The notes: generated by a model not told the origin, from the sequence alone. Positions 50,394 to 57,376 are shown, counted from the stretch's first letter. The stretch is DNA of 64,000 bases from Lobosporangium transversale (GCF_002105155.1 NW_019029001.1:124001-188000), one strand, 5' to 3'. Numbers and translations: made by a program.

Positions 50394-51745
50394 TAGCCCG
50401 TTTCATTTGGTCACGATACCTTATATTTTTTAAATTGATTGAATAGACTCAAGCGAAAATTGAATTGTATTGAATAGCAACTCTAAATCCGATGTCGTTC
50501 GCTACTTGCAAGCTTGGCTCGCTGTCCTCTATTTGCACGCCGAGCGACGGAAGAGGTCAGTGGCTTTGACGTTGAATAACTGTTATGCGTCACTATGTTT
50601 TGCTTCCTTACCTTCACTCTAGCTCTCACGCAACACAATCAAACATGATGATCGTCAAATTCACAGAGTTCCATCAAGTAAGTAATAGACTATCTTTTTT
50701 TTATCATTTACCTGCGCTTCCTAATTATTTGTGAGTAATCTCTGGTTTCTTACGATGAATAGACGCGGAATCTTTCGATCCAATGAGAACATCGCAGCTT
50801 CCTTCTCCCTTTTCTTTTTTTTTGACCTTGGAGGTCGTTACAAGGAGACGCCAGATGTTCTGCTGATTCGAACTGGCCACTACCCATAGTGGGGAAACTT
50901 TTTGAGCAGGTCTTTGACCTTGTGCAAAAGTTTCAGCCCTCCGGTTTTAAAAAGATTCTGTCAAGCATCTGAGTCTTTTCTTTTTTTTATATTTTCTTTT
51001 TCTTTTTCTATGGCTGCTGAGGGATATACGAAGGGACGCCGGATGCTCTGCTGATTCGAACTGGCCACTACCCATAGTGGGGAAACTTTTTGAGCAGGTC
51101 TTTGACCTTGTGCAAAAGTTTCAGCCCTCCGGTTTTAAAAAGATTCTGTCAAGCATCTGAGTCTTTTCTTTTTTTTATATTTTCTTTTTCTTTTTCTATG
51201 GCTGCTGAGGGATATACGAAGAGACGCCAGACATCTCACTGATTCGTTAACTGCCCACTATTTATAGTGATGGAAACTCTTGGTCTTTGACCCTGGTTTC
51301 AGCAACCCAGTCGTATCGAATCTCAAGGGTTCTGGCTCTATTTCTTTTTTTTTTCTATTTTTTTTTTCCCCCTCCAAGACATGGTTCCGCCTTGGTTCTT
51401 GCTATCTCCTGCCAGCTCGCCAGGTCTGACCACAAGTTGCCGTCTGTTCTCCGTCGCGGAAAATGGATAATATGATTATTTTTTTGCATGGTATTACAAA
51501 CGCAAGGCCTTTATTCAAACCTACAACATGCAACTCGACATCGAGACCAATTTTAACCATCATATATACTCTGAAGTAATATTAGGCCAACCAAGATTTT
51601 ACCCATTCGCACACTCGGATTCTTAGCAGCTGTCGGGCCGCGGTTTTTGTCGAGGCGTGGATGAGGATATCGTGGGCAAGACTCTCAACAATGTTTATAT
51701 TTCGTTGGAATAACAAAAAGCATCAAGCATTAAAGTCGAATAACA
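50394..51745 (+). repeat. Left terminal inverted repeat (1352 bp)
   Basis: Reverse complement of 56025-57376; no mismatch found in the segments compared; mirrored identical 62-aa ORFs lie 893 bp from each end. Confidence 0.95.
50847..51370 (+). repeat. 188-bp tandem array inside the left TIR (2 near-identical units plus 1 diverged unit), hairpin-rich; mirrored at 56400-56923
   Basis: GACGCC unit starts at 50847, 51035, 51223 (period 188); each unit has stem-loops followed by a T-run. Confidence 0.9.
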
Positions 51746-52131
51746 AAAAGCACCAATCATTATACTCGAATTGCGCAACAAGAATTATCAGGCAATAAAG
51801 CTGCATATTTTCGATAAACCCTTAATATTTATTTATATATATCATGTATTATGCAAAACTTGACTGCAATTATGCCAGCTAATGGCACACATGTCTGCGT
51901 GATCATGGTAAGAAAGGCTATATCTTCTGTATGCCATCGATAGCGTTTTCTTCACAAAGCTGCTGAAGTATTCAATTTCTTGCTGTTGTAGATCTCGATC
52001 ATTAGACTAGGTCATACACTGAAGGCCTAACATTAGTGACGGCTATGGCGGGGTTCAATAAAGGGCTCCCTCTTGACAACAAATAATAAACAACTTTTTA
52101 TCTTCCTTCACATTCCAGCAAAATTTTTACA

Positions 52132-53955
52132 ATGTCTTCAGCACAATTTTCTTTAATCCCCAAAGAACTTAGTGCGGAACAGGCAAGCCGGAGAAGCGAG
52201 TCTTTTATTTATGAAGAGTCCAACCAATCCATGTTTTCTCAAGAACATGAGAATGATAATCCCTTCCTCATCAGCATGGATGAAGGTGGTCTTCATGCAC
52301 CGCCACGACTTAGTAAGACAACCGTAGCGGAGGAGGAATACCGCCTAATCGCACATATCTACGCAAAGCTCAGCAATGCGCCGCCAGAGTTTCAAAAATG
52401 GATGAGACAATCGTTTGGCATGAAAGAGTGTGTGCAGATGGCTAAGCTTACCGGGGTAAATGCACATTCCTGTCTAGCAGCTATCAACTACTCAAGGACA
52501 GGGGTATTGAAGTTGCCCAACAAGGGTGTGGGACGTGGCCGTAAAGCACAAGCAAAAGATAAAGTGCTCCAGGGACATATCACGGATATCATCAGGAGAA
52601 CTAATCTGGGAGGTATCCCGAATACACTTGGACGAGTGGTGAATGAGCTCAGAAATGAGCATGGTATCAGGACGTCAAGGTCAACAGTTCATCGATACCT
52701 ACATGCAAGTAACTTTTACTGGGGAAAGGGGGTTCGAAGGAACTTTATGCACGATGCACCTCACATTGTGCAATACCGACTGAAATACCTCACAGAGCGT
52801 TTCAAGAACCTGGTGGAGCTTGACGATGGTTTAATCCCTATGATGCCAGAGGTATTTCTTGATGAGTCCTATTGTCACCTGGACCATTCCTCAAAAAATC
52901 GATGGGTAGAACGGGACGGAGGCATTGTGTGTGAATCATCTCGGCAACCACTTCTCGTCATGTTCGCTGCATTTGTCATCTATTACGACCGTGACGAACA
53001 GAAGGTGGTGGGGAAGTTTGTTGAGAACAGTGTTCACATCTGGGCGGCGAACAGCAAGGCATCTCTTCAGGGAAACGCCGATCATATGCAGCCCAATAGT
53101 CAGATTCTTGCAAATGATCATGACTATCATGGTCATTTTAACCACGAGGTGTTCGAAGAGCTGTTTACGACGGTTTGCCAAAGTCTGGTAAAGATGAATC
53201 TCGGTCCTTGTAAAATACACATGGATGGTGCCAGGTACCATTTCCATTGCCCTGATAGGAAGCCAACGGCCGCCAATAAGAAATCGGAGATAATGGAATG
53301 GCTTATATCTCATCAATTTGGAATTCCACCCGGTTCTAACGGTGATCGAACGCCAAGCAAGTCAGAACTACTTGCTTATATAAGGACCCTTGATTACCAG
53401 CCACGGTACACGGTCTGGGACATCGCATTAGAGAATGGGGGCCACTGGATTATTAGGACACCTCCTTATCATTGCGAACTCCAGCCCATTGAATTAATCT
53501 GGGGCGTTATAAAAAACAGCGTAGCTTACATGATATCCGGATCGATGGCTGCCGATCAACTTATCCAGATGCTGAAGGAACTCTTCCGAAATGTTCAAGT
53601 TAAAACTTTCGTTTCTGCCTGGAAAAAAACCCTTAGTTTTGCCTACAGATACATGCAGGAAATTCGTGGCCAGACATTCGAGACGGCCGAGGTGCAGGAA
53701 GAGTTGGAACAAATTTTTCATTCGATTGATTTTTCCGAGGCCACATTCAACAGGCTTTTTGGGATTGGTGCTGCCAGAGGCCGATACAATGTCTTAATTG
53801 AGCCCATGGAAGATGGTGATATTGGTGATGAAGTTGATGAAGTTGAAGAAGACGTTGATCTTATCCCGACATCTCGATCCTTGGCTCCTGATGAATTGGA
53901 GGAAGACGATAACTCAATGCCGGCTTCACCTTCAGCCCGTTTTTACCGCCACTAA
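52132..53955 (+). CDS. IS630/Tc1/mariner DDE transposase with DD88E spacing
   Basis: Intact intronless 607 aa; GRGRK, HTH (TSRSTVHRYL), VFLDESY, IHMDGARYH, PPYHCELQPIELIWG; 88 residues counted between the second D and E. Confidence 0.93.
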   Translation: MSSAQFSLIPKELSAEQASRRSESFIYEESNQSMFSQEHENDNPFLISMDEGGLHAPPRLSKTTVAEEEYRLIAHIYAKLSNAPPEFQKWMRQSFGMKECVQMAKLTGVNAHSCLAAINYSRTGVLKLPNKGVGRGRKAQAKDKVLQGHITDIIRRTNLGGIPNTLGRVVNELRNEHGIRTSRSTVHRYLHASNFYWGKGVRRNFMHDAPHIVQYRLKYLTERFKNLVELDDGLIPMMPEVFLDESYCHLDHSSKNRWVERDGGIVCESSRQPLLVMFAAFVIYYDRDEQKVVGKFVENSVHIWAANSKASLQGNADHMQPNSQILANDHDYHGHFNHEVFEELFTTVCQSLVKMNLGPCKIHMDGARYHFHCPDRKPTAANKKSEIMEWLISHQFGIPPGSNGDRTPSKSELLAYIRTLDYQPRYTVWDIALENGGHWIIRTPPYHCELQPIELIWGVIKNSVAYMISGSMAADQLIQMLKELFRNVQVKTFVSAWKKTLSFAYRYMQEIRGQTFETAEVQEELEQIFHSIDFSEATFNRLFGIGAARGRYNVLIEPMEDGDIGDEVDEVEEDVDLIPTSRSLAPDELEEDDNSMPASPSARFYRH

Positions 53956-55998: not shown

Positions 55999-56024
55999 AT
56001 TGCTTCATTTAGGATTGTTTATTG

Positions 56025-57376
56025 TGTTATTCGACTTTAATGCTTGATGCTTTTTGTTATTCCAACGAAATATAAACATTGTTGAGAGTCTTGCCCACGA
56101 TATCCTCATCCACGCCTCGACAAAAACCGCGGCCCGACAGCTGCTAAGAATCCGAGTGTGCGAATGGGTAAAATCTTGGTTGGCCTAATATTACTTCAGA
56201 GTATATATGATGGTTAAAATTGGTCTCGATGTCGAGTTGCATGTTGTAGGTTTGAATAAAGGCCTTGCGTTTGTAATACCATGCAAAAAAATAATCATAT
56301 TATCCATTTTCCGCGACGGAGAACAGACGGCAACTTGTGGTCAGACCTGGCGAGCTGGCAGGAGATAGCAAGAACCAAGGCGGAACCATGTCTTGGAGGG
56401 GGAAAAAAAAAATAGAAAAAAAAAAGAAATAGAGCCAGAACCCTTGAGATTCGATACGACTGGGTTGCTGAAACCAGGGTCAAAGACCAAGAGTTTCCAT
56501 CACTATAAATAGTGGGCAGTTAACGAATCAGTGAGATGTCTGGCGTCTCTTCGTATATCCCTCAGCAGCCATAGAAAAAGAAAAAGAAAATATAAAAAAA
56601 AGAAAAGACTCAGATGCTTGACAGAATCTTTTTAAAACCGGAGGGCTGAAACTTTTGCACAAGGTCAAAGACCTGCTCAAAAAGTTTCCCCACTATGGGT
56701 AGTGGCCAGTTCGAATCAGCAGAGCATCCGGCGTCCCTTCGTATATCCCTCAGCAGCCATAGAAAAAGAAAAAGAAAATATAAAAAAAAGAAAAGACTCA
56801 GATGCTTGACAGAATCTTTTTAAAACCGGAGGGCTGAAACTTTTGCACAAGGTCAAAGACCTGCTCAAAAAGTTTCCCCACTATGGGTAGTGGCCAGTTC
56901 GAATCAGCAGAACATCTGGCGTCTCCTTGTAACGACCTCCAAGGTCAAAAAAAAAGAAAAGGGAGAAGGAAGCTGCGATGTTCTCATTGGATCGAAAGAT
57001 TCCGCGTCTATTCATCGTAAGAAACCAGAGATTACTCACAAATAATTAGGAAGCGCAGGTAAATGATAAAAAAAAGATAGTCTATTACTTACTTGATGGA
57101 ACTCTGTGAATTTGACGATCATCATGTTTGATTGTGTTGCGTGAGAGCTAGAGTGAAGGTAAGGAAGCAAAACATAGTGACGCATAACAGTTATTCAACG
57201 TCAAAGCCACTGACCTCTTCCGTCGCTCGGCGTGCAAATAGAGGACAGCGAGCCAAGCTTGCAAGTAGCGAACGACATCGGATTTAGAGTTGCTATTCAA
57301 TACAATTCAATTTTCGCTTGAGTCTATTCAATCAATTTAAAAAATATAAGGTATCGTGACCAAATGAAACGGGCTA
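56025..57376 (-). repeat. Right terminal inverted repeat (1352 bp)
   Basis: Reverse complement of 50394-51745; begins 27 bp after the cargo gene stop. Confidence 0.95.

Follow-up and report, generated by a model that had tools for sequence, protein, structure and literature searches.

Transposons of the IS630-Tc1-mariner (ITm) group are described as one-gene elements in most cases (PMC8533490). Within the group, Sailor was defined by Shi et al. (2021) through a DD78-111E transposase and TATA target-site duplications, and the same paper reports a 6,979-bp element from Lobosporangium transversale that encodes a transposase of 607 aa, duplicates TATA, and has extra-long terminal inverted repeats (TIRs) (PMC8533490). 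Fanzor and TnpB (OMEGA) systems combine an accessory nuclease with a structured noncoding RNA in DNA transposons, Mariner/Tc1 included, and have a RuvC nuclease, one outward RNA, and a guide derived from the flank (PMC10530073, PMC13565253). KolobokE and KolobokP are DDE transposons with a downstream accessory nuclease, lambda-exonuclease-like or His-Me, which in KolobokE is of the PD-D/ExK type; they duplicate TTAA, and no TIR RNA is mentioned for them in the available portion of the paper (Kojima and Bao 2022, PMC9587614). In Spok and in Medea/CR-REase, an HsdR-like PD-(D/E)XK domain on a mobile element is used for killing; Spok itself supplies a kinase as the antidote, and Medea carries an NTPase (PMC6660238, PMC11342252). 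Here we describe a 64,000-nucleotide stretch of L. transversale (GCF_002105155.1 NW_019029001.1:124001-188000; "the window", numbered from its first letter), in which a Sailor element carries a predicted restriction-like nuclease as a second gene and, within its TIRs, a spliced transcript that runs inward into tandem units with a predicted fold. This transcript and the nuclease cargo, previously overlooked, are what is new here; no literature on the cargo, on the TIR RNA, or on the three-part anatomy was found, with Repbase lying outside the scope of the search.

Judged by its sequence, the element is the published Sailor-Lobtra, a member of the DD82E/Sailor superfamily of ITm transposons, so that novelty of the element itself is not supported. 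The transposase gene (52132-53955, plus strand) encodes 607 aa, as in Shi et al., with a DD88E triad (D244, D365, E454) inside the Sailor spacing range, and its motifs VFLDES, IHMDGA, and HCELQPIEL correspond to the Sailor-type VYLDET, IIMDNA, and HCELNPIEL. The gene is covered by contigs of sequencing run X5, which we took as RNA (a guess, no run being recorded as such) because it was the sole run with GT..AG joints, the DNA runs having none. Named relatives of the transposase come from Mortierellaceae and Rhizophagus. The Sailor-Lobtra sequence in the supplement of Shi et al., compared by eye, matches the element in the window, cargo included. The paper explains the size of Sailor-Lobtra by its TIRs, printed as 1,362 bp (our own count is 1,350 bp), and its main text does not mention a nuclease, a cargo, or a second open reading frame (ORF) (PMC8533490).

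The TIRs show the 1,352 bases of perfect inverted identity given in a preliminary description of the locus (50394-51745 and 56025-57376), but the outer 2 bases belong to the target-site duplication, which is TATA (50392-50395 and 57375-57378) and not TA. TATA is typical of Sailor. Because both TIR ends lie inside TATA and other DNA contigs starting at 50392 carry different flanks, the element proper is placed at 50396-57374 (6,979 bp), with TIRs of 1,350 bp at 50396-51745 (plus strand) and 56025-57374 (minus strand). Separately, in the DNA runs the terminal 44 bases (50392-50435) were some 160-180 times as deep as the flank contig, with different sequence beyond 50435, which probably reflects a high-copy nonautonomous family with a Sailor end.

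Downstream of the transposase gene and co-oriented with it, a 458-aa ORF in five exons with one stop forms the nuclease cargo. Exon 1 (54283-54588, plus strand, as are all five) encodes aa 1-102, the variable N-terminus, and is followed by exon 2 (54668-54876) and exon 3 (54964-55326, with N270 and E271); exon 4 (55426-55655) holds P309-D310, E324-V-K326, D338, and K347, and exon 5 (55730-55998) ends in RKRKRSE. The four GT-AG introns are 79, 87, 99, and 74 nt long, and 26 bases separate the stop from the right TIR, which probably holds the 3' untranslated region (UTR) of the nuclease mRNA too, with AATAAA at 56255. Exon 2 matched the family profile at 4e-13 (the cargo being included in the profile), and exon 4 matched HSDR_N weakly, with an E value of 0.0011. 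The E..PD..EVK motif pointed out in the preliminary description is conserved among relatives: the family shares N270-E271, P309-D310, E324-x-K326, D338, and K347, and the catalytic columns are kept at E271 in 39 of 43 relatives, at D310 in 55 of 59, at E324 in 60 of 63, at K326 in 57 of 63, and at K347 in all 64. The terminal RKRKR is likewise present, but such a basic tail occurs in only 3 of 66 relatives (many of them partial) and is not a family trait.

The pairing of transposase and nuclease is old, and sequence comparison supports the restriction-like nuclease as a lasting accessory gene in this ITm lineage. In three further lineages of L. transversale, automated gene models hold a Sailor transposase followed by a part of the cargo family, in the same order as here; these joined models reflect adjacency and are not true fusions. 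In P0110 the transposase is 54% and the nuclease 30% identical, with PD and ExK kept. The corresponding values for P0095/P0114 are 61% and 32%, with PD and ExK kept in P0095, and in P0003 the transposase is 67-84% identical and the cargo 50% identical over the N-terminus only. Diverged deletion copies in the DNA runs also link transposase to cargo (53361>54924 and 53342>54105). The earlier placement of a restriction-like nuclease in the accessory slot is thus borne out by diverged lineages that keep the pairing and the motif, with the fold taken from a relative. In near-identical contigs the transposase and the cargo were equally deep, at roughly six times the depth of one flank contig, and the TIR reached 11-15 times that depth; as a rough inference from contig depth, which is no copy number, there may be about six near-identical copies. 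Majority contigs differed from the window at about 5 positions over the 5.8 kb compared, and the family is therefore young.

Outside this species, the nuclease was found in none of 30 metagenome Sailor loci (best E value, 0.09), most of which were too short. The informative loci were L001, which extends 5 kb downstream of the transposase and has no nuclease, and L023 and L027, which are compact Sailors with TIRs of 65 and 27 bp and no nuclease. The Mortierella Sailor in Shi et al. has TIRs of 52/53 bp and a length of about 2.4 kb (PMC8533490). Downstream of the related transposase in L001, the region 9904-10700 contains direct repeats some 170-290 nt long, and every repeat has a donor-like GTAAGC on the minus strand; neither a nuclease nor a TIR was seen there, and the model of the TIR RNA did not match.

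A search of the full library with the paralog P0001 gave 66 representatives of the nuclease family. Among the 28 looked up, 21 were from Mortierellaceae and 1 from Mucorales, and 6 came without an organism. The Atlas adds 30 unnamed clusters, of which the three shown were mostly from Mucoromycota. When exon 4 and P0001 served as queries in word-indexed protein searches, only P0001 was recovered. The family profile gave no match to PDB sequences at E <= 10, no PADLOC model, and weak Pfam matches of one member per family. In a tree of the nucleases, built from 61 rows after 6 short ones had been removed, the Sailor-linked nucleases fall into one 17-row group (96/93) together with other Mortierellaceae proteins, and two of the Sailor-linked nucleases have long branches; this sequence tree neither supports nor rules out a single origin of the Sailor-linked nucleases. 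One of the 66 relatives, P0066 from Actinomortierella ambigua, has an annotated protein kinase after the nuclease core, which is either a Spok-like order or a fused prediction.

The cargo is predicted to be a PD-(D/E)XK protein from its motif and from the restriction-endonuclease fold of the relative P0047; the claim about the fold refers to the model of this relative and extends to the cargo by homology. P0047 is 34% identical to the cargo over 336 aa (E value, 2e-42), and its model (predicted local distance difference test [pLDDT], 90.7) matched DrdV with a Z score of 8.4 (root mean square deviation, 3.3; 140 aa), BpuSI with 7.7, TT1808 with 6.6, and HsdR with 6.5, so that the fold check proposed earlier came out in favor of the restriction-endonuclease fold for this relative. 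P0001 folded alone reached a pLDDT of 38 and was unusable. The P0047 model aligned best with a pair of mitoribosomal chains (Z scores reaching 10.5, over an extended domain), which we take to be the RNA-binding mL37/mL65.

These features set the cargo apart from the nucleases of the closest described systems. Like KolobokE and KolobokP, the element is a DDE transposon with a downstream accessory nuclease, but it has an ITm transposase, a TATA duplication, and a TIR RNA; the top fold rows of P0047 are type IIG, Uma2, and HsdR domains, and exonuclease rows appear weakly. Like the OMEGA loci, it joins an accessory nuclease to a structured RNA, but with a restriction-endonuclease (REase) fold in the model, tandem inward units, and no guide found; no TnpB match in Pfam was obtained for the cargo exons or for 61 relatives. 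Unlike Spok and Medea, the cargo comes without a kinase or an NTPase, and its 458 aa end after the nuclease domain, where Spok has its C-terminal kinase. The Crinkler header LFLAK/DWL is absent from aa 1-102, and neither exon 1 nor the 61 relatives gave a Crinkler match in Pfam. By the features tested, the element belongs to Sailor, and its cargo is none of the Fanzor, Spok, Crinkler, or KolobokE nucleases.

The fold also bears on a protein-only role in transposition, in which the nuclease would re-cut the excision scar and promote repair from the sister copy (restorative homing) or would process intermediates. Among active folds, restriction domains of type II and type I come nearest, and the element ends read TATA/GC...GC/TATA, so that, given a 2-nt overhang, the scar would be a constant palindrome, TATA-GC-TATA (TATAGCTATA-type), which is a plausible restriction-type site. 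Protein nucleases are also present in other DDE transposons, namely KolobokE, KolobokP, and KolobokD (PMC9587614). However, the 2-nt overhang is an assumption, protein-based homing is argued to be almost impossible for site-changing elements (Kojima 2026, PMC13565253), so that only a constant scar escapes this objection, and the idea leaves the TIR RNA and the large non-Sailor nuclease family unexplained. We regard it as unlikely.

The five-exon gene model of the preliminary description stands in its ORF and in junctions 1, 2, and 4, but not fully in intron 3 (55327-55425), which was seen spliced only in a diverged paralog. Junctions 1 and 2 agree with the NCBI gene model P0104, identical over aa 1-238, and junction 4 agrees with P0045, identical over aa 314-436 (both predictions, not transcripts). 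The GT..AG joint of intron 4 was seen in run X5, where the sequence of this intron is also covered, and one X5 contig begins at 54964, the start of exon 3, with 12 unplaced letters. In X5, intron 3 is read through by contigs at 54964-55395 and 55366-55603 that are identical to this family, and diverged paralogs are spliced at introns 3 and 4. By translation, a message that keeps intron 3 would yield a protein of 293 aa lacking both PD and ExK. The fully spliced form may exist unseen, because contigs show presence and not absence; X5 had no cover at 51750-52035 and at 54621 (intron 1), and missing cover was given no weight. In addition, one X5 contig (53614-54570) runs from the end of the transposase gene across the spacer into exon 1 of the cargo, which may reflect overlapping UTRs or read-through, although the contig does not prove a single transcript. 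A diverged nuclease paralog in X5 (aligned at 55437-56020) gave a spliced 885-nt contig with a depth of 246, far above that of the contigs of this family, and some nuclease relatives may be strongly expressed.

Both genes named in the preliminary description are present, but the element does not hold exactly two, as a third transcription unit lies inside each TIR. Contigs of X5 cover 50478-50990 of the left TIR, with 50677 linked to 50763 by removal of a GT-AG intron of 85 nt (GTAAGT...TAG, 50678-50762, plus strand), a joint absent from three DNA runs. The orientation of this intron indicates that the TIR transcript runs inward. Its first exon would span 50645-50677, with an approximate 5' end. 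The contigs reach the first of three tandem units of about 135 nt, each on the plus strand: unit 1 (50843-50979; shuffle z, -2.83), predicted to form a rod that ends in a three-way junction with two hairpins; unit 2 (51030-51168; z, -3.80), at a period of 188 bp; and unit 3 (51218-51344; z, -2.79), which has diverged and has the same predicted fold. The right TIR holds the mirror copy of the RNA unit, directed toward the nuclease gene. The depth of the TIR contigs was 25,000 (an apparent ceiling), compared with 10-37 for the flank and 13-17 for the two genes; contig depth is no measure of RNA level, and a very abundant TIR RNA is a lead only.

Shuffle z scores for units 1-3 were -2.8, -3.8, and -2.8 on the transcribed strand versus -1.0, -1.4, and -2.2 on the other strand. 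Whereas unit 1 is almost the same as unit 2, unit 3 has 25 substitutions and 10 indel blocks; even so, 94% of the unit-2 pairs are kept, compared with 19% in random controls (0/500). RNAalifold on the three sequences gave 1 two-sided change among 42 pairs, and a diverged unit of similar period was present in run X3. These results support, at the level of structure prediction, the structured TIR repeats of the preliminary description, which are transcribed and keep their predicted fold under divergence. The conserved structure could act at the DNA level instead. Rfam gave no match to the repeat unit at E <= 1, and hammerhead, C/D-box, and signal recognition particle (SRP) readings of the units were dropped after inspection by eye. 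The spliced TIR RNA has no ORF above 38 aa; an 18-codon ORF opens it at the apparent 5' end (50645-50786) and is probably untranslated. It is quite improbable that the nuclease gene and the transcription unit were captured from the host by chance and are under no selection for the element. Such a neutral passage would be in keeping with the retention of intron 3 in the RNA seen, but the unit fold was kept against random controls, and the frame and catalytic motif are intact in lineages 30% identical.

The TIR RNA was also compared with possible targets. At a length of 9 nt or more, it matched neither the empty site nor the scar nor the TIR end, and its matches to the target site, the tested flanks, and the genes did not exceed 11 nt. 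These comparisons concern the idea of an RNA-guided nuclease, a Fanzor analogue on a restriction fold, in which each TIR unit would be a scaffold with a short guide loop. The mitoribosomal fold match, if those chains are indeed RNA-binding, speaks for such a function, as does the resemblance of a nuclease beside tandem structured RNAs in a DNA transposon to Fanzor-fRNA loci (PMC10530073). However, an inward RNA could obtain no guide from the flank, the near identity of units 1 and 2 also argues against guide loops, and the target comparisons lend no support to a Fanzor-like guide. We consider this function highly improbable, the least likely of those discussed here.

We tentatively propose, as the reading that fits best although it falls short of probable, that the nuclease and the TIR RNA form a selfish maintenance module, with the nuclease as a toxin restrained by RNA and splicing. 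The transposase would cut and paste the element into TATA, like other ITm elements. Fully spliced cargo would yield an active, nuclear, toxic nuclease, which would be held low because intron 3 is retained and because the TIR RNA units bind the protein. Once the element is silenced or lost, the RNA would disappear sooner than the protein, and element-free or silenced nuclei (or spores) would then be penalized by the remaining nuclease. An ORF scan of the element found no separate antidote ORF; any antidote must therefore be RNA or splicing. In bacteria, the type III toxin-antitoxin system ToxIN consists of short pseudoknot repeats cotranscribed with the ToxN RNase. In ToxIN the nuclease toxin thus stands beside tandem structured RNA repeats; the tandem units here, the first of them covered by RNA contigs, are predicted to be branched, are about 135 nt long, and lie in TIRs on a separate spliced transcript of a eukaryote. 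By analogy, Spok, in which the PD-(D/E)XK domain is required for killing (PMC6660238), and Medea, whose CR-REase7 protein is tied by a cited reference to a composite Tc1 transposon (PMC11342252), may serve as precedents for REase toxins in selfish elements. The more specific claim of a new kind of ribonucleoprotein system, in which a restriction-fold nuclease would be bound and controlled (neutralized or guided) by tandem RNAs from the element's own TIRs with intron retention as a second switch, and which would amount to a eukaryotic addiction system with an RNA antitoxin, appears rather unlikely to us.

Several results weigh against a maintenance module. The RNA evidence comes entirely from contigs of X5, a single run only presumed to be RNA. 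A model of the RNA run over the window and 30 related loci found only the six units of the element itself, and RNA in the TIRs of three older L. transversale lineages could not be demonstrated. Foldseek gave no match to PDB or viral models at E <= 0.001. The nuclease family is large (66 representatives and 30 unnamed clusters), and transposase sequence occurs in only 2 of 70 family proteins, so that most relatives may work without a TIR RNA. With about six copies, losing one keeps the antidote, and addiction would need family-wide silencing or crosses. No sequence link between the TIR RNA and the cargo was found. This last result speaks for two unlinked functions, in which a nuclease of an expanded fungal REase effector family (Crinkler-REase-like) that spreads on transposons would be hitchhiking and the TIR RNA would serve the element alone, for example as a structured decoy for host RNA interference or as a regulator of transposase expression. 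The family is wide in Mortierellaceae with N-termini that vary, and two near-identical copies (P0115/P0116) lie on one Mortierella contig, which also favors this explanation. Nevertheless, the pairing persisted even as nuclease identity fell to about 30%, and long RNA-bearing TIRs and the nuclease co-occur here, whereas the complete compact Sailors examined have short TIRs and no nuclease. We hold two unlinked functions to be doubtful, though a serious competitor of the maintenance module.

The genes around the element are typical of an intron-rich fungus. The left flank (49500-50390) is partly repetitive and holds a spliced transcript with GT..AG joints at 49683>49772 and 50120>50246; an ORF in this flank had no Pfam match. 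On the right, an X5 contig at 57292-57422 (minus strand) joins a GTATGT donor in the flank to an AG acceptor inside the TIR (the mirror of 50478) and is a flank transcript spliced into the element. In run X8, 179 C>T and 24 G>A changes were considered as repeat-induced point mutation, which was rejected because the changes comprised all Cs in six of seven pieces and all Gs in the seventh, a full conversion that resembles a bisulfite library. Every C (or G) was converted in these seven pieces (51755-55626), CpG included, and the contig path over the upstream region and both genes appears unmethylated, a weak indication at the contig level.

The accessory nuclease recorded for ITm transposons in the literature covered is Fanzor, and here a restriction-like nuclease has been retained over long divergence. 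The structured TIR transcript gives a reason for TIRs that are known in the literature merely as extra long, and a large unnamed nuclease family of Mucoromycota is now tied to a mobile element. If the RNA and the protein interact, the element would contain a compact two-part system, a candidate RNA-antitoxin or RNA-controlled nuclease in eukaryotes.

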